A stretch of 64,000 nucleotides of DNA. Source: a virus. Taxonomy: Duplodnaviria; Caudoviricetes. Where the stretch lies: the IMG/VR virus record IMGVR_UViG_2721755587_000001. The stretch is one strand, 5' to 3'. The notes beneath the pieces were generated by a model that was not told the origin of the DNA, ran no database searches, and saw only the letters and a list, made by a program, of their open reading frames with translations. A program made the position numbers and the translations under genes. Within the stretch, counting starts at the first letter, position 1; each line of letters starts with the position of its first letter. Positions 3,666 to 47,502 of this stretch are shown here, piece by piece.

Positions 3666-3712
3666 TGAAGTTCTGATTCCACGCGTTGTTGGAGTTGCTA
3701 GCGGACTGCGTC
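3603..3712 (-). repeat. DGR template repeat (TR), 110 nt
   Basis: Reads TQSASNSNNAWNQNFNDGNQNNNHKSSEFRARAVRR (10 AAY codons); matches two VRs except at its adenines. Confidence 0.96.
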
Positions 3713-3882
3713 TATTCGTGCTATCTACGTCGCCTCGCCGAAGGCCTGGGCCGATCAGTGGGGAAACTGCGCCAGACCAGCCCTGGTGACTCCCAGCGGT
3801 ATCTGTGATGCGCATGGCGGTGGCCTTGTGAGCCAGCGGCACGACCAGATTAAAAATCGCACGGGCATGACCGCCTTGACGG

Positions 3883-4236
3883 TCATGCAACAGGCGACGA
3901 TGCGGCTCTCCGCCATCCATTGGCTTGCTTCCCGATACTGTTGGTAAGCACTACGGTCTTGGCATACTGCTGCCTAGAGATGAGCCGCTTGTCTACCGAT
4001 AAGCGCAGCAGAAGCTCAGTCACCTGAAGGCGTTCGATCAGGTCCAGTAGATGCGGAGATTTCTCTCGGGCCGTGTTCGCCCGAAATATCAGGACGGTGA
4101 TCTTCACGCACTCGTCGCGGATGACTCCGCCAATCGACGCCTTGTAGTCACGAGGCATATTCTTGGCGAGGTCCGTGACGGCGTCGAGCAGGTCGTATGC
4201 CACCTTGTAGATCGGAAGGCTGGTATGGATGGCCAT
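3883..4236 (-). CDS. avd: DGR accessory variability determinant (Avd-like four-helix bundle)
   Basis: 117 aa; LPIYK..YDL...MPR.YK..IG...IGKQANGW; lies between target and TR. Confidence 0.9.
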   Translation of the reverse strand: MAIHTSLPIYKVAYDLLDAVTDLAKNMPRDYKASIGGVIRDECVKITVLIFRANTAREKSPHLLDLIERLQVTELLLRLSVDKRLISRQQYAKTVVLTNSIGKQANGWRRAASSPVA

Positions 4237-30135: not shown

Positions 30136-31873
30136 GCACGAGATCCCGAGTGAGTTGCACGGCGCTGTCATGAACCTGTCGTGCACGGTTCCCGCCGAGT
30201 ACGAAGATGCAGCAGTCAAGATGGGATATCGCGTGGGGCATCGCGACGCGCGGCATGCCGCCGCTGAACTTGTTGCTTCATCACGAGCGGAGCAGGCCGA
30301 GCGACCGGTTCCTGAGAAGGACATGCACGATGGGTTTGGCATCCCTATGTCAGACACCTTGCAGAATGCTGTCCACCGCGTCTATTTCCGTGCGGGCCTC
30401 CTGGTTGCGCGCGCGGACTTGGCGCGCTTTGTCGGGCTGCAAAACCCCGATGTGGCGGCGTCGATCCGCGCTTTCTGGTGGCGCGATTTGAGTGAAGATC
30501 CCGGAACGCCGCGCCTGCTTAAATGGGATGAAATTGCCGACGGCGGGGAAGAAGGCCCATGGACGGCAAAGGAGGTCAGTCCTAGCGTGGAGGCCCTGCC
30601 GATCGCGCTGCAGTTCCTCGAGGGCATGCCAGGCGAAGTGCCGCTCGAAGCATTGCCCCTCACGGAACCCGTGACTGTCGCGAAGGCTCTGCTCGCCGGA
30701 GAGCGGGCTCGCGTCGTTCTGGACAACGGCGTAGGCCCGAAGGCAACTGTGCACCTGGTGAACATCGGGCTGACCGGGTGGGTTCATACGCAGCCCACCG
30801 CAGCGGCATATGCGGAAGGATACAACGCCGGGTCCAGCGCTATGCGCCGAGCCATTGCGGGACCCGAGCAGCGGCTCCGCGCCAAGGCCGCATCTGCTGG
30901 CATTGATGGGCAGGCGAATGTCGAGGCCGCTGCGAAGGCTGCGCGCCATGTCTACTGGCTGCCGGCCTTTCCCGACGACGACTGGGAGCAAGCGTCTCAG
31001 ACTACAAAGCAGAAATGGATCGAAGTCGCCCGCGCCGCCCTCAACTCTGCTCCCTCGGCGTGTGGGACGTGCGGCGATGGTATCCAGCCTGACACACAGA
31101 CTGGAACGACATGTTCGTGCGCGTCGCAGTCCGCTCGCCCGGCACCTGTCAGCCGGGCGCATAAGTCGGTGCGTAAGGACACCTTATGGGATGTCGCAGT
31201 CAAGTTCTCGGAGTCACGCGGCTATAGCAGCCCGCAGTTGGCTATATCGGCGGCTCCTGATCTCCGTGCCCCGTCTGCTCCCATCAATGAGGGTGGCAGC
31301 GAGCCGGTAGCGTGGGCAATCTTCACCGCCGAGGGGAACATCAGGATCTGGTCGGCAAGTAAGACCAATGTCGAAGCCGTGGCAGAGAAGAGTGACTTGG
31401 CTCTGACGCCGCTCTACGCCGCCCCGCAAGCGAGCGCCAAGGCGCTGACGGAAACCGTGCATTCGAAGCTGAAGGAGCTGATCGGAATGCAGTCCGAAGG
31501 CGAATGGGATGACTCCATGATTGAGTCCGACGCGCGCAAGTTCACGGATGCATTGATGCCCATCCTGGCCGCAGAGCAGAGCAGCGAGGACATGCTTGAA
31601 CGCCTTCGCAATCCGATGCCTCCATTCGGCATGCTAGTTCGCACGCTGCGAATCGTCTCCGGTTCGTTGCTCATGGATATGGCGAAAGACCTGCAACTCG
31701 CGCCCTCCGAACTTAGTGCATACGAATGTGGCAGGAAGCCCATCCCAGAAGAACTTCCGCGCCACGCCGCAAATTATTTTGAACGGGAAGGTATCGGAGG
31801 AACTTTGTCTGCTCTGAGCAGGGCGCGCCGAGTCAGCATCCGCGGCGCAATCTCCAAAGGAGAGGGGAAGTGA
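30128..31873 (+). CDS. Mosaic hypothetical protein with C-terminal XRE HTH
   Basis: 581 aa; LMDMAKDLQLAPSELSAYECGRKPIP near the C-terminus. Confidence 0.6.
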   Translation: MAEHEIPSELHGAVMNLSCTVPAEYEDAAVKMGYRVGHRDARHAAAELVASSRAEQAERPVPEKDMHDGFGIPMSDTLQNAVHRVYFRAGLLVARADLARFVGLQNPDVAASIRAFWWRDLSEDPGTPRLLKWDEIADGGEEGPWTAKEVSPSVEALPIALQFLEGMPGEVPLEALPLTEPVTVAKALLAGERARVVLDNGVGPKATVHLVNIGLTGWVHTQPTAAAYAEGYNAGSSAMRRAIAGPEQRLRAKAASAGIDGQANVEAAAKAARHVYWLPAFPDDDWEQASQTTKQKWIEVARAALNSAPSACGTCGDGIQPDTQTGTTCSCASQSARPAPVSRAHKSVRKDTLWDVAVKFSESRGYSSPQLAISAAPDLRAPSAPINEGGSEPVAWAIFTAEGNIRIWSASKTNVEAVAEKSDLALTPLYAAPQASAKALTETVHSKLKELIGMQSEGEWDDSMIESDARKFTDALMPILAAEQSSEDMLERLRNPMPPFGMLVRTLRIVSGSLLMDMAKDLQLAPSELSAYECGRKPIPEELPRHAANYFEREGIGGTLSALSRARRVSIRGAISKGEGK

Positions 31874-40854: not shown

Positions 40855-41629
40855 AGAGATGAAGCCCGGTGCGCAGGCACTGACCGTTGCCAGATGGACC
40901 GGATCGGTCTCCCAGCACGCCAATGGCGGGTTTGTCGCGGTCAGCGACTACATGGCGTTGGCGAGCGAGCATGACAGCTGGAAGCGCATGTACGAGGACG
41001 CCGTCCGCAGCCTAGCTTGCATTGATCAGGCTCTGGGCATCCCGGCTGACGAGGCGGGCGGTGCCGCGCCGATCCTGGCGGAAATCGAGCGCCTGAAGGA
41101 AGGAGCGAAGGTGGCCGGAGTTGATGCCAAGCACGAGGCCCTGGAGCTCACTGCGCGCTCCATTGCTCACGGCAACGCGAATGAGTGGGCTGCCCAAGAT
41201 GGAAAGGTCGGTTCTCTGATCGAAAGCGAGTTCTACCCGTTCATCGAAACGGACGTTGCCGCCTACACCGGCGATGATGCTGACGATGAGCGCTTGCGCG
41301 CTTACCTCGCGGCAGCCAACCCAAACACTGTCTTGGAGCTCTTCGATTGCGTTCGCGCGGTCCGGGCTAGTGCTCAGGCCACGGTCGCGCGCCCGCTGAT
41401 GGATGCGAAGTACGGAAACGAGGGATATCACCCGTTCGCGGTTGCATCCATGCCGAAGCTGGGGCTGACGGACGATTTCGCGGGAGACAACGTGCACTTG
41501 GTTCGATGCATTGAGGCCCTGATTTCGCTTGATGCGAACGGCAGTTTAGTGCCGCACGGCATAGGCTGCCATGCGCGCACGCTGCTATCCGCATCGGCAG
41601 TACGGCTCGCCCGGCAGGAGCGCGCATGA
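40847..41629 (+). CDS. Ea22-like mosaic hypothetical protein
   Basis: YLAAANP.TVLEL motif. Confidence 0.55.
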   Translation: MNEEMKPGAQALTVARWTGSVSQHANGGFVAVSDYMALASEHDSWKRMYEDAVRSLACIDQALGIPADEAGGAAPILAEIERLKEGAKVAGVDAKHEALELTARSIAHGNANEWAAQDGKVGSLIESEFYPFIETDVAAYTGDDADDERLRAYLAAANPNTVLELFDCVRAVRASAQATVARPLMDAKYGNEGYHPFAVASMPKLGLTDDFAGDNVHLVRCIEALISLDANGSLVPHGIGCHARTLLSASAVRLARQERA

Positions 41630-43422
41630 TCCACCGCGAATACAAGACGTTCGGCTTCTGCTGCGGCCTGGGCGGCGGGGCCAAGGGCTTCAAGAAGGCT
41701 GCTTCCCAGGTGGGCAACATGATCGCGACCTGGCGCTGCATCGGCGGCATCGACGTCGACCCGGCAGCGGCGCGCGACTTCGAGCACCTCGTTGGCGTGC
41801 CGTGCACAGTGATGGACCTGTTCACCCGGGCGATGTACACCGCCTTCCACGGCAAAGAGCCGCCGGCGGGCTGGCGCGAGGCCACGGCCGCCGACGTTCG
41901 GCGTGCCGCCGGCAACGAGACGCCCGACTGCGTGTTCATCTCGTCGCCCTGTAAGGGCGCGTCCGGTCTGCTGTCCGAGGCGCTCAGCCGCACACCGAAG
42001 TACCAAGCTCTGAACGAGCTGACCCTGCGCTGCGTGTGGCTGATGTGCGAGGCTTGGAAAGACAAGCCCGTCAAGCTGATCGTCTTCGAGAACGTGCCGC
42101 GACTGGCCACGCGCGGGCGGCACTTGTTGGACCAGATCAACCAGATCCTGCGCCACTACGGCTATGCTGTGAATGAGACTACGCATGACTGCGGCCAGAT
42201 CGGCAAGCTGGCCCAAAGCCGCAAGCGCTTCCTGATGGTTGCCCGGCACATGGAGCAGGTCCCGGCCTTCCTCTACGAGCCTGAGATTCATCGCCTGCAG
42301 GGCGTCGGTACCGTGCTGGGCCGCATGCCGCTGCCTGGCGATCCGGCCGGCGGACCGATGCACCGCGTGCCGTCGCTGCAGTGGAAGACCTGGGTGCGGC
42401 TGGCGTTTGTTGAGGCCGGTAGCGACTGGCGGAGCCTGAACAAGCTGGCGGTGGAGAACGGCCACCTCAGCGATTACCTGATCGTGCCCGAATATCGCGA
42501 CGGCTACATGGGGGTGAATCGATGGGACGAGCCCAGCGGGACCGTCGCTGGTCGTAGTGGGCCGACGAACGGCACGTTCAGCGTTGCGGATCCCCGTTTC
42601 GCCAAAAGCGCGAAATGGAATGACGGCCATGCCTACGGCGTGCTGCCGTGGGACCAGCATACGAACACCATCGCTGCGCAGCAGATGCCAGGCCAGGGCT
42701 ACTACACCGTCGCGGACCCGCGTCACGCTGGCCCGGCCAAGCACAATAACGAGTTCCGGATCGTGCCGTGGGGCCACGCCGCCGGCGCAGTAACCGGCGC
42801 CCACGGCACCGGCCAGTGCGTGCAGGACCCGCGCGCGTCGACCGGCTTCGAGGGCGCGGGCAAGTACCGCATCACCGGATTCGACGAGCCGGCCGGCACG
42901 GTCATCGCTCGCAGCGATACCGGCCAGGGCGCTTATGCCGTGGCGGATCCCCGCCCGGGCATGCGGCGCGAGCGCGGCGACCACTACCTGACCGGTGGCC
43001 ACTATGGCGTGGTGGGCTGGGAACAGCCGAGCGGTGCGGTGTCTGCTGCTGCTGGCCACGACAACGGCCGGTGGTCTGTGGCGGACCCGCGCCTGCCTGC
43101 GGCGAACGACAAGCTGATTGCGATCATCCGCGCGCTGGACGGTACCTGGCACCGCCCTTTCACTACGTTTGAACTGGCCTGCCTGCAGTCGCTTGTTGAG
43201 CCCGAGGAATATCTCGAGTTGGACGGGCTGAGCGATCAGGCCTGGCGCGAGCGCATCGGCAACGCTGTGCCGCCGGACGCCGCGTGCGCGATCGCCGAGG
43301 TGATGGGCACCACCCTGCTACTGGCCGAGACCGGCGAGACGTTCATGCTGTCGGCCATGCCGGTGTGGGTCCAGCCCGTGGCCGTGGCGCTGTCGGTGGC
43401 GCAGCCTGCGGAGGTCTCATGA
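41626..43422 (+). CDS. DNA cytosine-C5 methyltransferase with internal repeats
   Basis: FCCGLGG, SSPC, FENV, QSRKR, IGNAVPP. Confidence 0.9.
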   Translation: MIHREYKTFGFCCGLGGGAKGFKKAASQVGNMIATWRCIGGIDVDPAAARDFEHLVGVPCTVMDLFTRAMYTAFHGKEPPAGWREATAADVRRAAGNETPDCVFISSPCKGASGLLSEALSRTPKYQALNELTLRCVWLMCEAWKDKPVKLIVFENVPRLATRGRHLLDQINQILRHYGYAVNETTHDCGQIGKLAQSRKRFLMVARHMEQVPAFLYEPEIHRLQGVGTVLGRMPLPGDPAGGPMHRVPSLQWKTWVRLAFVEAGSDWRSLNKLAVENGHLSDYLIVPEYRDGYMGVNRWDEPSGTVAGRSGPTNGTFSVADPRFAKSAKWNDGHAYGVLPWDQHTNTIAAQQMPGQGYYTVADPRHAGPAKHNNEFRIVPWGHAAGAVTGAHGTGQCVQDPRASTGFEGAGKYRITGFDEPAGTVIARSDTGQGAYAVADPRPGMRRERGDHYLTGGHYGVVGWEQPSGAVSAAAGHDNGRWSVADPRLPAANDKLIAIIRALDGTWHRPFTTFELACLQSLVEPEEYLELDGLSDQAWRERIGNAVPPDAACAIAEVMGTTLLLAETGETFMLSAMPVWVQPVAVALSVAQPAEVS

Positions 43423-44060
43423 TGGGTAGTCAAAAGCTCTTGAATCAGGGCTGGTTGGACCACAGCCCCGTCCGCAAGCCCCGCGCCGGCCATATCGGTG
43501 AACAGGTCTTTGCGGAGCGGTGGCGCGAGTTGATGGCGAGCGTTCCCCTGCATGGAGAGGGCCATCCCAACGAGATGCTCGAGACGATCCTGCGCAATTA
43601 CCACAAGGACCAAGTCGATCAACGCGATGCTACTGTGGCTGCAACGGTGGTCTGCTGGCTTGGCTGCAATTGCGGTCGGGCTATCCTGTACATCGCGAAG
43701 CGATTGAAAGAGCTCGGGGCTGGACCCGAGTCATACCTGTATGCCTGGGCAGGAGAAAACCGGAGGTCTTTGGGGATCAATCGTGGCTACAGGACGATCG
43801 AATACATGCTTGCCCCTGACGACCACTTTGGGCGGCAATGGCCACATGAATCAGAGTTGAGCCTGGTTCGTCGCCCGGAAATTTCAGTCAATGACCTTGA
43901 GGTCGCGGAGCACCTCTTTGCCTGGTTCAGGACTGGCGACGGGGAGGCATGGATCGCAGAGTCTGAGCGGGAAGTAGACCGCCGCCAGGCGGAGGCCTAC
44001 AGGCTCGGGCACGACAAGTGGCGCGCAGAAGCTGTTTGCCTAGGACCACTAGCCGAGTAA
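43419..44060 (+). CDS. Hypothetical protein
   Basis: ATGA-coupled, 213 aa. Confidence 0.55.
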   Translation: MMGSQKLLNQGWLDHSPVRKPRAGHIGEQVFAERWRELMASVPLHGEGHPNEMLETILRNYHKDQVDQRDATVAATVVCWLGCNCGRAILYIAKRLKELGAGPESYLYAWAGENRRSLGINRGYRTIEYMLAPDDHFGRQWPHESELSLVRRPEISVNDLEVAEHLFAWFRTGDGEAWIAESEREVDRRQAEAYRLGHDKWRAEAVCLGPLAE

Positions 44061-44068
44061 AGTTTTTG

Positions 44069-44096
44069 TTGAAAAATATGCATACATGGCTATACT
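44069..44096 (+). promoter_or_regulatory. Sigma70-like promoter with an operator in its spacer, upstream of the ncRNA region
   Basis: TTGAAA-N16-TATACT overlapping TATGCATACATGGCTA. Confidence 0.6.
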
Positions 44097-44099
44097 TAG

Positions 44100-46300
44100 G
44101 CCAATACGAATTCTGCTTCGTTGGTGAAGGCCTCCTCGGCCGTGGGGCACCGCCGAACTGCAGGAAGATTGGCCGGTCGTAAGCGGCCCCGAGCAATCCA
44201 CCGTATTGCACATGCGGCCCGCGCAAGCGGGGAGTCAAACGTCCGTCTCCTACGGCAGCCCGAAAGGACAGGGTAATGTGCAGTGTCCTTGATAGTCGGC
44301 CGCGCCGCCGTGCATCGAAACGCCGGCGCGGCCAGTCTGTCACCAATCTCGGTAAGCACATTCAGCGAGTGCGCTTACCGAGACTGGATGGTGACCCTTC
44401 AAGACGGTCTCTTTAAATGTCTACCAAGGGCGCAGTGGTTCGCTTGAGACACGAACCCGACTGGCCGGCGTAACCGGCTACAGAATGCACCCCGAGAGGG
44501 CCGCGCTGCAGCAGTACGCAGCAATCCGAATGACTGCCGTGGTGGGTGGTCGCTAGGTAGGTCCGACACAAGACTCAGCTAGCGCACCTCTCGCTTGCTG
44601 GCGCGGCTGACAGCGAAAAGTCGGCCACCTGTTGCAAGATGGCTCCGCCGCAGGAGTCTGACGCATCGCCGGACGAGAGTACCCGGCTGGAATTCCTGAT
44701 CGCCACCAGTAGCCGGGTCGCCACCGGCGAAGGAGAAGAGGTGGCAGCGAGACGGTAGCGTGCGGGGCGCAAGGCCCAATCCGTGACTAGCCGGGGAGAG
44801 TACCGGCATCTTCAAGCGTGCGGCTGCCCCGAGCGGGGTATCCCGCGATTCCAGGCCACACACCTATGTGCGGCCGCACACTTGAGGGTGAGAACACGTA
44901 GCGCGTGAATGGACTGGTCCTCCGCGCGGCAGATAGAGAACCGCGACGAGCCGGAGTAGCGACCGGCCACCTTCAGCTTTCAAGTGAGCGTCCTGCTGTC
45001 CAGTGGGCGCGGCCAGAGATGGCGACAAGAGGTGGTAGCGCACCTCAGCAGCTAAAACGCAAATGAGCGATCCGGTGGGCCTTTGGCCACATGACTCCGG
45101 TAGCAGGGTTGGCACGCATAGCCTCCCTGCCTTGTTCCCGAATTGGCGACAGGTGCTCAGGGCGTTCACTTGATGGCATGCATGCGAATGCACCTTTCAG
45201 ACAGGTATAGATTGGACTCTTGGCCTGGCAGTCGGTGGAAGCCCGACCCTTCATGCATCACCATCTCGGGGTCACGGGGTTGTAGCCGGACCTTAAACGA
45301 CGGTCTGACCCGCGCCGGTGTGGTGATGCATGAGGGAATGCGCGGGCTGACGCGCGGCGGATGGAAGCGAACCGGCGGCGACGAATGTCCTGGGCCGTAC
45401 CACGTAAGTGAGCAAAGCGGCGAATACAAAAAATCACCGCGTCCCTGTGCCGGGATCAGCGCCGGCCCCTCAGCCGCAAGCCCGGAGGCGGCGCGCAAGC
45501 GAAAAACACACGGGACGGATTAGCAGAGTGCGGGCGGACCGAAATGCCGTCGCTGGAATCGTAACCAGCACCTTCATGGATGTCTGTTTTCAGAGAAGTG
45601 ACTCGCCCAAATATCATTGGGAAGGAGAACGTAACGTCCAGGGACATCCATGAGGGGCCACCTAGTCGTCAGCCCGTGGGCCGAGCAGGCAGGTGATATG
45701 CGGTGATCCGCGCCCTCTACTGTATGCGGGCTTGGCCGAGTGGTCAGGCAGCGGCCTTCCAAGCCGCCAACGCCGGTTCGAATCCGGCAGCCCGCTCCAA
45801 GAAACCTACCGCACAATAGGGCGGATGCTGGAACCCGTAACCAGCTCTTTCATGCATGGCGATTGCCAAAGGGCCAGCGAAAGCAGCCGCCGACCGCCCG
45901 GCAATAGGTGGCGGCAGTCGTCATGCCTGAAAGTGAAGCGGGGATGCGAGCCCCGTATCAGGACACTCCTCTGTCGAAAGCCAAAAATGCCGCCACTTGC
46001 CAGGCGGAAGGCGCGAGCTGGGAGCAAGAGAAACCTGCATGGACTTTGCGTGCCGCCGGGGTAGCGTCCGGCCACTTTCTTCAATTTCGACAACGGGACG
46101 AAACGAATGGCATACCTGCTCTTGTTGGTGGTGCTCTGCTTCTGGCGTTTTCCCGTGACGCCGGCGCTGTCGGGGGCTGGATCGCCCGCCTGGCGGAGTC
46201 AGCCAAGCCCACAGCCTACTCCACGCCTGGGTGCCAGGGCATGGAAAACGGAGTGGGGTTAGTGGCAGCACCATGACGACTTCAACACGGGAATGTTGAC
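44100..46300 (+). ncRNA. Putative long structured ncRNA / array of tRNA-like modules
   Basis: No credible ORF; many GNRA hairpins, repeated T-arm-like stems and 14-20 bp helices; bounded by a promoter and a terminator. Confidence 0.6.
45726..45799 (+). tRNA. tRNA-Gly (TCC)
   Basis: GCGGGCT/AGCCCGC acceptor stem, GCGGC-CTTCCAA-GCCGC anticodon arm, GGTTCGAATCC T-loop, encoded CCA. Confidence 0.93.
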
Positions 46301-46301
46301 G

Positions 46302-46330
46302 AAACCCGGCTTCGGCCGGGTTTGTCTTTT
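46302..46330. terminator. Intrinsic terminator
   Basis: AAACCCGGC-TTCG-GCCGGGTTT followed by GTCTTTT. Confidence 0.8.
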
Positions 46331-46354
46331 CTGGGGTCGGCTAGATCCGCTAGC

Positions 46355-47047
46355 CTAGATCTTGTCGAAGCTAGCCATCAGCATGAGCCGGCCCGCGGTG
46401 TCAGGGTGCCACGCTTGTACCAGCTCCTTGTGCCGCATCCCAGGCTCGGCGTACAGGATTCTCACCGCGACAATTCCGACGTGGTAGGACCAATAGGCGA
46501 ATGTGCACCTGCCATCGACGTCGTTTCCATTCACTTCTGTCCAGCCCGCGACCCTAGTACCCGGCTCGTGGGACGGTGTTGGACCGATGGCAATGAAGAC
46601 GTGCGGATGCGCCGTTCGAGTAAGAAAAGCACTCGCAAACGGGCGGAGATCGATTGGAACCTTGTGTTCGGCGATTAGACAGCCGAAAAGCTTCACGAAA
46701 TAGAGGTGGGTATCAAGCAAAGCATCCTCCACCGGTTGCTTGAATACTTCAGCCATCTCAATTGAGTCCCCCGGTCGGATAGATGGTCGACTTCTCAGAT
46801 CGCCAGACAATTGCTCCCATGCTTTGTCATACGGCTGGCTGAGATTGTTGTTGCAGTCCGCGCATAGAAGAGCCTTCGACTTGAAGGCCGGATCCATCAC
46901 TGTGCGTTTTGGGACGTTGCGCGCCTTACTCGAGTGAACATAAAGAAGCTTGTTCTGAGAAACGTGCCCAAACAACCCCCTCAGATCGGAGACCTTCATC
47001 AGGTGCTCTCCCGTCTCGGCAGCTTTCCCGCAGATCCAGCAATCCAT
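46355..47047 (-). CDS. HNH-like Zn-binding moron protein
   Basis: CWICG....EH...LLCADCNN; opposite strand to neighbours; own RBS. Confidence 0.6.
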   Translation of the reverse strand: MDCWICGKAAETGEHLMKVSDLRGLFGHVSQNKLLYVHSSKARNVPKRTVMDPAFKSKALLCADCNNNLSQPYDKAWEQLSGDLRSRPSIRPGDSIEMAEVFKQPVEDALLDTHLYFVKLFGCLIAEHKVPIDLRPFASAFLTRTAHPHVFIAIGPTPSHEPGTRVAGWTEVNGNDVDGRCTFAYWSYHVGIVAVRILYAEPGMRHKELVQAWHPDTAGRLMLMASFDKI

Positions 47048-47502
47048 TTCCCCCTCCTGCAGTACGTTCGGTCCTGACGTGAATTCTAAGGCAACAGGAG
47101 ATCAGGCCTCTTGTTGGGGAAGATGGAAAACGGCGTTCCGCTGACTCAATCCCGTATCCCAAGATGAATCCATGCCACCCCGGAAGATCGTGCAGTCGGG
47201 TCACGCGGGTGAGGGGTAAATCGCCCGGACACATGACATGGCGCGGGGCCGTGTCAATCCGACACCCCGCTACGGCAGCGCCCAGCGCGAAAGCGTAGCC
47301 CGATGGGCGCACCACCCAAGGAGATTGAGCATGTGGTTTCCCGTTTGTGTGTTCCTATGGGCCGGTGTCTTCGTGTCTGCCTGTGGCTGGCCGAGCGACG
47401 ACGGTTGAGGCATGCCATGAAACTCACCCCGGCTTACCGGACCCAAGCGATCGAGGAAGGTGGACTGCCGGTCCCCGGCGAGTTGGCGCAACGGAGCGAG
47501 CT

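Follow-up and report, generated by a model that had tools for sequence, protein, structure and literature searches.

We analyzed a 2.2-kb stretch (positions 44069 to 46330) of a 64,000-nt tailed-phage sequence, IMG/VR record IMGVR_UViG_2721755587_000001, the whole of which is called the window here. The window is a prophage, with a terminase gene, a C5 DNA methyltransferase gene, a gene for a NinI-like phosphatase, a baseplate gene and a tail fiber gene annotated, and its host is a Cupriavidus strain with an 8.4-Mb genome in two contigs. The explanation that we favor, with moderate confidence, is that the stretch is a self-contained non-coding transcription unit, a chain of one tRNA-Gly, tRNA-shaped RNAs and other modules that would be cut by tRNA-maturation enzymes. 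With about a dozen modules, it is longer than usual for a phage structured-RNA array organized around tRNAs and tRNA-shaped RNAs. A first-pass annotation made from the letters alone had proposed a non-coding unit of tRNA-like modules or, alternatively, one large ornate RNA; the former description held up, and the latter is disfavored by the modular relatives described below.

The central piece of evidence is module M2 (positions 45330 to 45473), the canonical member of a tRNA-shaped RNA family. A strict 24-base pattern taken from its 5′ end retrieved 44 IMG/VR contigs; the copies were aligned, and a covariance model, R1, was built. M2 is the only strong R1 match in the window and in the whole 8.4-Mb genome. 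Family members share a closing stem of 6 bp (6 to 8 bp in the family definition), a 5-bp hairpin with the loop GGCUGA that begins three bases after the closing strand, a center of 32 to 175 nt whose sequence is not shared, and a 3′ GCCGG/CCGGC hairpin whose loop contains UCAGC, the exact complement of the 5′ loop. The 3′ strand of the closing stem directly abuts this 5-bp T-like hairpin, as in tRNA. In M2 itself, the closing stem pairs 45331-45336 with 45467-45472, the variable center is 93 nt long, and the T-like hairpin (45449-45466) holds UCAGC in its loop, complementary to the GGCUGA loop of the 5′ hairpin. Both hairpin loops are invariant in 23 distinct members, and 8 of the 21 modeled pairs have changed on both sides across the family. 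In an alignment that was fitted to the model, which favors structure, 98.5% of cells were paired, compared with 34 to 45% when partners were slid; the complementarity of the closing stem is nonetheless visible by eye. Its variants include UGAGGG/CCCUCA, GGAGGG/CCCUCC, CGAGGG/CCCUCG, AUAGGG/CCCUAU and GAAGGG/CCCUUC and, in phage P1, GUGGUG/CAUCAC. Directly after the closing stem, 24 of 43 distinct members have ACC and 10 of 43 have ACCA, which matches the discriminator-plus-CCA pattern of a tRNA 3′ end and is frequent rather than universal. As judged from these features, the family is tRNA-shaped: its acceptor-like stem stacks on the T-like arm, a D-like arm is present, kissing loops would form the elbow, and the position of the anticodon arm is taken by a free-form arm. 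The covariation of the stems and the 3′ ACC(A) of other members fit the idea of tRNA mimics put forward in the first-pass annotation, with maturation by tRNA enzymes.

The family is not confined to this phage. R1 copies were found in 7 of 78 Cupriavidus species genomes, and full-length matches occurred in Pandoraea, Pararobbsia, Delftia, Xanthomonas and other contigs. From Cupriavidus to Xanthomonas, Delftia and phage P1, the core of M2 is kept almost base for base, with compensatory changes. Two contigs of less than 1 kb, assigned to Desulfocarbo (L086) and Chromohalobacter (L097), gave M2-family matches with identical score, length and GC content, which points to a contaminant common to both assemblies or to a highly mobile phage. 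In 11 of the 44 IMG/VR loci, the M2 copy has canonical tRNAs at a distance of up to 1.7 kb, and these are without exception downstream of it and co-oriented. Plasmid pBVIE05 of Burkholderia vietnamiensis G4 carries an 81% identical M2 copy in which the closing and D-like stems show compensatory changes relative to the window, the central insert is nearly identical, and one inner hairpin has been rebuilt with a different stem under its GNRA loop. Because the insert is nearly the same and its inner hairpin has been rebuilt, the “variable” arm of M2 is under selection itself.

In phage P1 (NC_005856), R1 matched positions 69819 to 69916 with 51.9 bits. The annotated order there is the dmt methyltransferase gene, the Pban promoters controlled by C1 operators, a dicF-like stretch, tRNA-Asn, tRNA-Thr, about 0.8 kb, tciABC, tRNA-Ile and ban; the 0.8 kb is annotated solely with the minus-strand open reading frames (ORFs) plp and upl. 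The P1 family member therefore lies in the repressor-controlled leader of the ban operon, beneath these two ORFs. Ahead of this member come a GCCGG/CCGGC hairpin and a long hairpin, and the three together repeat the triplet of the window. Between 69472 and 70041, plp and upl overlie the plus-strand RNA modules (the family match and the T-like and long hairpins that precede it) and may be annotation artefacts or overlapping genes. Opposite-strand coding sequences annotated as hypothetical proteins also cover homologous modules in Ralstonia phage p2110 (locus L021, 3484 to 4164) and Burkholderia phage BcepIL02 (locus L023, 4047 to 4313).

The features recognized in the stretch, in order, were as follows. 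R2 is a broader covariance model of the M2 family, searched over 2.6 kb without filters.

44069-44096, plus strand: sigma-70-like promoter (TTGAAA, 16-nt spacer, TATACT) matching 10 of 12 consensus positions, with an 8-bp palindrome in the spacer.
44100-44339, plus strand: 5′ structured stretch, part of a 904-nt fold with z = -6.8; no match in any compared locus.
44340-44483, plus strand: module X, with a long hairpin, a highly conserved core, a small hairpin and a 3′ GCCGG/CCGGC hairpin (44464-44478).
44478-44700, plus strand: module Y, a multi-hairpin RNA of about 205 nt that ends in a T-like hairpin (44668-44687).
44790-44892, plus strand: T-like hairpin (44790-44807) followed by long spacer hairpin Ha, from pattern and fold.
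44883-44976, plus strand: cloverleaf M1, with an 8-bp closing stem, three inner arms and a T-like arm abutting the closing stem, from the fold.
44975-45180, plus strand: long spacer hairpin Hb, which carries branched cargo of about 150 nt, from the fold; a 71% identical copy occupies the same relative place in IMG/VR locus L059.
45170-45254, plus strand: cloverleaf-like module Cc, with a T-like hairpin (45231-45247); weak, full-length R1 and R2 matches of 10.5 to 10.7 bits.
45247-45337, plus strand: long spacer hairpin Hc, with a 17-bp foot, from the fold; 84% identical in Ralstonia phage p2110.
45330-45473, plus strand: module M2, matched by R1 with 64.1 bits and by R2 with 66.8 bits.
45552-45661, plus strand: T-like hairpin (45552-45569) followed by long spacer hairpin He, from pattern and fold.
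45650-45720, plus strand: small closed module with a GAGGG/CCCUC closure and two inner hairpins, from the fold, directly upstream of the tRNA.
45726-45799, plus strand: tRNA-Gly with anticodon UCC, called by ARAGORN and matched by the Rfam tRNA model (RF00005) with 66.4 bits.
45827-45937, plus strand: T-like hairpin (45827-45845) followed by long spacer hairpin Hf, from the fold; homologous pieces in Burkholderia phage BcepIL02 and in L059.
45929-46080, plus strand: cloverleaf-like module M3, with a 7-bp closing stem and a T-like hairpin (46055-46072), from the fold.
46080-46301, plus strand: structured 3′ tail, with a fold of -103 kcal/mol for 256 nt, holding an unsupported 51-codon ORF (46107-46262).
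46302-46332, plus strand: intrinsic terminator with a 9-bp stem (hairpin 46302-46323), a UUCG loop and a U tract.

The stretch is dense in a few recurring structural elements. Hairpins of the form GCYGG-loop-CCRGC (the 5-bp GCCGG/CCGGC type) number 11 here, compared with 0 to 5 per 2-kb bin elsewhere in the window. All ten T-arm-like hairpins listed by the first-pass annotation were recovered, and the T arm of tRNA-Gly has the identical stem. A CYTTCA-type strand follows six of the hairpins at a distance of 0 to 2 nt, and CACTTTC follows a seventh (46055). Two corrections are needed: the hairpin at 44712 has no such following strand, and those at 44464 and 44668 are the 3′ hairpins of the larger conserved modules X and Y. 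The acceptor-like closures 44883/44968, 45331/45467 and 45929/46073 pair as had been claimed, and the five long helices (44810/44873, 44980/45158, 45248/45321, 45571/45643 and 45848/45913) form in minimum-energy folds. The feet of these helices overlap the closing strands of adjoining cloverleafs, so the interlocking that had been proposed is real. The stretch also contains 13 GNRA-capped hairpins, compared with 4.1 ± 2.0 in shuffled sequences (an enrichment of about threefold) and 2 to 7 in coding stretches of equal size, in agreement with the GNRA richness noted previously.

Covariation in homologs, which the first-pass annotation had left to be sought, was found for modules X and Y as well as for the M2 family. 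Copies of module X are 83 to 86% identical in two Cupriavidus genomes and Burkholderia phage Mica, and 6 of its 37 predicted pairs are compensatory among four sequences. Module Y has nine homologs (in prophages and IMG/VR), with compensatory changes in 19 of 45 predicted pairs; its terminal T-like hairpin is of the kind that also ends module X. It is thus supported, at the level of sequence comparison, that modules X and Y have folds of their own.

The tRNA-Gly is the sole tRNA call in the stretch, and no other module reached E ≤ 10 with RF00005. The next three R2 matches after M2 (45170-45254, 44884-44974 and 45929-46079) are all on the plus strand and coincide with modules predicted by the acceptor-like pairings. 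Folded alone, 44883-44976 forms a clean four-arm cloverleaf, and its R2 match (M1, 44884-44974) is full length and weak, at 10.4 bits (E = 0.05 in 2.6 kb); the M3 match (45929-46079) is likewise full length and weak, at 8.5 bits. We regard M1, Cc and M3 as look-alikes that share the architecture of the M2 family and not as proven members. The small closed module at 45650-45720 is a prediction from its own sequence and fold; no homologs of it were found among the compared loci.

The stretch lacks the properties of protein-coding DNA. GC content by codon phase is flat across 44069-46330, in contrast to the flanking genes, where it is low at the second and high at the third position in the usual way. 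Neither Pfam nor PHROG searches gave a match for any of the ten longest ORFs, and the 51-codon ORF in the 3′ tail lacks both a gene-like codon-phase GC pattern and a Pfam or PHROG match, so the claim that the stretch contains no credible ORF was upheld. All recognizable elements (the tRNA, M2 and the next three R2 matches) lie on the plus strand. A non-coding unit oriented on a single strand is therefore supported. The stems of the hairpins are palindromic, so that both strands match the hairpin pattern, and minus-strand ORFs are annotated over the homologous stretches of P1 and p2110; formally, these observations could point to an element that acts as DNA (recombination sites, a replication origin or a packaging site) or to hidden minus-strand protein genes. 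This is the least probable of the explanations that we considered, and we give it very little credence: the family model matches one strand and is always co-oriented with tRNAs, G-U pairs occur in the helices, there is no codon-phase signal or protein-family match, and no repeated motif of a protein-binding type was seen. Integron attC-like cassettes were dropped on similar grounds, with no integrase noticed among the annotated genes, model matches on one strand, and G-U pairs in the helices. CRISPR-repeat mimics were dropped as well, since the loops and spacing are too variable. Two other comparisons were uninformative. Folding energies of the two strands differed by a mean of -0.3 kcal/mol, that is, not at all, and thus do not bear on orientation. 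Three RNA sequencing runs with the same species label had zero coverage of 43000-47500; the flanking prophage genes were equally uncovered, so these runs are silent on expression.

Comparison with relatives bears on whether the unit is an array or a single RNA. A BLAST comparison with phages and genomes of the same genus revealed a mosaic in which pieces of 60 to 200 nt recur in p2110, Mica, BcepIL02 and a handful of Cupriavidus genomes, in each case in non-coding or doubtfully annotated DNA. Locus L059 carries Y, Hb, M2 and the Hf unit in the order of the window, without the modules that lie between them here, and single modules occur alone in Mica, BcepIL02 and p2110. Among the compared loci, no homologs were found for 44100-44340, 44700-44975, 45475-45720 or 45940-46300. 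A search for prophage relatives through the upstream 258-amino-acid protein gave one weak match, and a syntenic alignment of the full 2.2 kb was consequently not obtained. That relatives keep subsets of modules in the same order and that single modules occur alone argue for an array rather than one large RNA. The alternative, a single folded particle of about 2.2 kb like GOLLD or ROOL, draws on the continuous dense structure of the stretch, including the strongly negative z score of its 5′ 900 nt, and on the fact that GOLLD and ROOL are themselves phage borne and often found beside tRNAs. We nevertheless consider it very unlikely, given that relatives differ by the presence or absence of entire modules, each of which is also found by itself elsewhere, that neither GOLLD nor ROOL matched at E ≤ 10, and that no long-range helix is backed by homologs.

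Some relatives contain what appear to be broken tRNAs. In the Cupriavidus relative L029 (minus strand, about 1640 to 1365), a degenerate tRNA sits in the leader-trailer helix (the spacer hairpin) and is followed by an M2 copy and then by a truncated tRNA-Gly from which most of the D arm and the whole anticodon arm are gone, leaving the first ~15 nt, which reach into the beginning of the D arm, joined to the T arm. The pBVIE05 array consists of a tRNA-Tyr-like element with a large insert, placed in a leader-trailer helix, and two M2-type modules; the tRNA-Tyr-like element (locus L142, 2125 to 2262) has normal D and T arms and what may be a GUA anticodon loop, and its variable region measures about 60 nt. 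Such elements, together with a pseudo-tRNA in phage Mica, could mean that the array is a now functionless set of decaying phage tRNA genes and integration scars. We rank this explanation next to last and regard it as quite improbable. Pseudogenes are not expected to retain an M2 core conserved nearly base for base with compensatory changes or to covary as modules X and Y do, and the loops of the M2 family are not tRNA loops.

The 5′ closing strand of M2 has a second potential partner in the majority of family members: a strand 70 to 90 nt upstream, with which it would form the foot of the preceding long hairpin. By sequence reading, such an alternative upstream pairing of the closing strand can also be recognized in P1, with different sequences. 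This pairing may simply reflect closing sequences shared between neighboring modules through tandem duplication or recombination at module joints, or it may be relevant for folding or processing. Mutually exclusive pairings, with a partner for each closing strand either upstream or downstream, could form a cis-acting leader or switch, co-transcriptional or triggered by processing, that controls read-through or stability of a phage operon, with no role for RNAs acting in trans. The recurrence of alternative closing-strand partners fits such a switch, as do the position of the P1 array in the ban operon leader and the several IMG/VR loci in which the array stands before genes. In the window, however, a strong terminator closes the unit and the gene that follows lies on the other strand, leaving nothing downstream to control, and tandem modules with shared closing sequences would yield such pairings without any switch function. 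We therefore judge a cis-acting switch to be unlikely.

We hypothesize instead that a single transcript runs from the promoter near 44100 to the terminator at 46323 and folds module by module into one tRNA-Gly, a canonical tRNA-shaped RNA together with three or four divergent ones, modules X and Y, and five long spacer hairpins. Each tRNA-shaped module would contain a D-like hairpin on its 5′ side and an acceptor-like closing stem that runs on into a T-like hairpin of 5 bp. Pairing between the loops of these two hairpins would give the canonical module a tRNA-like elbow, and a hypervariable, swappable arm would occupy the place of the anticodon arm. Host tRNA-maturation enzymes would then cut the chain at its tRNA-like elements, with cleavage by RNase P at the 5′ side of each closing stem, followed by trimming of the 3′ ends. 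The 3′ ACC(A) of other members suggests that CCA repair may take place there, and the long hairpins are possible RNase III sites. The predicted products would be a tRNA and several stable small RNAs, with the scaffold providing processing and stability and the variable central arms serving as the working parts in trans.

Several points weigh against this scheme. That there is one transcript and that it is processed are assumptions. The copy of M2 in the window is followed by GCCG and not by ACC(A), and the stack of acceptor-like stem on T-like arm measures 11 bp, compared with 12 bp in tRNAs. The kissing helix is predicted from complementarity alone and lacks covariation because its loops never vary. 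Given the alternative pairing, the cloverleaf may be neither the only nor the first fold. For M1, Cc and M3, the model matches are weak (8.5 to 10.7 bits; E = 0.04 to 0.16), and their loops are not complementary. Targets for trans-acting RNAs did not emerge either: the longest complementary or repeated runs were 13 to 15 nt against the rest of the window and 16 to 18 nt against the 8.4-Mb genome, within the range of shuffled sequences or chance. The antisense role suggested in the first-pass annotation accordingly found no backing, as complementarity to the prophage or the host genome did not exceed chance.

No catalogued family accounts for the array. In Rfam 15, searched at gathering thresholds and at E ≤ 10, matches in the stretch were limited to the tRNA and to weak terminator look-alikes; GOLLD, ROOL, C4 and YrlA gave no match at E ≤ 10 with permissive filters. 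A literature search for the M2-family RNA or the P1 plp/upl stretch found no description. As far as these comparisons reach, the M2 family appears to be uncatalogued in Rfam 15, widespread, and present without annotation in P1. The stretch had been called a candidate for an undescribed system; it has no Rfam match or paper that we found, but its family is not special to this phage and occurs in P1 too.

Several known RNAs offer partial parallels. The C4 RNA of P1 and the CI RNA of P4 are antisense RNAs cut from a longer transcript by RNase P through mimicry of the top of a tRNA, and in P1 the M2-type array likewise lies behind a repressor-controlled promoter. C4 itself did not match at E ≤ 10, and whereas C4 has adjoining target sites, no complementary targets were found here. 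GOLLD and ROOL are large structured non-coding RNAs of phages and prophages, often found beside tRNA genes, and the present stretch is similarly large, highly structured, phage borne and near a tRNA; they differ in being single conserved folds that assemble into cages, whereas this is a variable string of independent modules. In the engineered tRNA scaffold of Ponchon and Dardel, a cargo RNA replaces the anticodon arm, and the chimera is reportedly processed and protected like a tRNA in Escherichia coli. The hypervariable insert of the M2 family sits at exactly that position. The scaffold is man-made, and the elbow of M2 would come from a loop-loop helix rather than from the D-loop/T-loop contacts of tRNA.

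The nearest catalogued relative, by architecture and context and not by membership, is STnc100/PasD. PasD1, PasD2 and STnc100 are related prophage small RNAs of Salmonella and pathogenic E. coli with unknown function (bioRxiv 10.64898/2026.05.13.724894). Like this array, they are prophage borne and intergenic near tRNAs. The STnc100 model (RF02076) had no match at E ≤ 10 in 43900-46500 or in the whole host genome; in P1, it gave a subthreshold match of 33.4 bits (cutoff, 47) to a module neighboring the family member, which itself was not matched. The kinship is for this reason limited to architecture and context. By sequence reading, this STnc100-like module of P1 resembles M2 in having a closing strand, an AAUGCG-type hairpin and a T-like hairpin at its end. 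STnc100 and the PasD RNAs differ in being described as Hfq-bound, base-pairing RNAs of enteric bacteria, with no mention of a tRNA-like shape or of arrays. A eukaryotic parallel is provided by mascRNA at the 3′ end of MALAT1 and the tRNA-miRNA units of murine gammaherpesvirus 68, in which a tRNA-shaped element within a longer non-coding transcript recruits RNase P and RNase Z and so sets RNAs free. There, the tRNA-like element is flanked by a leader-trailer helix (PMC8457004), much as the feet of the spacer hairpins flank tRNA-like modules here. Those systems are eukaryotic or belong to a eukaryotic virus, occur as single units and have no sequence relation to this one, in which processing is a prediction.

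The stretch is bounded by a 258-codon ORF that ends at 44060 and by a minus-strand ORF that ends at 46355. The promoter and terminator named by the first-pass annotation are present, as promoter-like sequence at 44069-44096 and a terminator hairpin at 46302-46323. The accompanying operator was not borne out: the spacer shows only the 8-bp palindrome, a second copy of the promoter-spacer sequence was sought in the window and none was found, and no inverted repeat was reported there. Because this site has no second copy in the window, an operator is not substantiated.

A DNA methyltransferase gene is found upstream of the RNA array in the window (41626-43422), in P1 (dmt) and in L059 (2207-3451, by our reading a C5 methyltransferase gene). 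One ORF separates the methyltransferase gene from the array in the window and likewise in L059; in L059, it lies directly between the promoter and the array (minus strand, 1821 to 1534), its last codons overlap the start of module Y, and its product is presumably acyl-carrier-protein-like (a reading made outside the Pfam searches). This neighborhood may reflect synteny or chance. The pBVIE05 array starts beside a small divergent gene annotated as hypothetical, which we read from its sequence as a likely helix-turn-helix regulator. A same-sense repeat of 23 nt, identical at 22 of 23 positions, is shared by the array (44740-44762) and a prophage ORF (31292-31314) and is probably due to chance. 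Elsewhere in the window, 3709-3899 on the minus strand is a strong Rfam match to RT-15 RNA (190.9 bits).

Phage genomes are usually read as wall-to-wall protein genes, and here 2.2 kb goes to folded RNA. The nearly base-for-base conservation of the M2 core across distant Proteobacteria and P1 points to contact with a universal host component, which would most plausibly be the tRNA-handling machinery. A more ambitious version of the reading, which we hold only tentatively and consider doubtful, is that the tRNA-shaped modules are true mimics matured by RNase P (and by the CCA-adding enzyme where ACC(A) is present), forming a natural tRNA-scaffold platform of early infection with exchangeable arms, in which the either/or pairing orders folding and release. 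Possible uses would then include soaking up host factors or defense toxins at the tRNA elbow or acceptor end, or delivering effector arms. If the modules are indeed processed like tRNAs, they would be a natural counterpart of the tRNA scaffold used in RNA engineering and a new class of early phage RNAs, candidates for acting against tRNA-directed defense systems. P1, among the best-studied phages, carries a member of the family under two opposite-strand ORFs and thereby offers a tractable test system.

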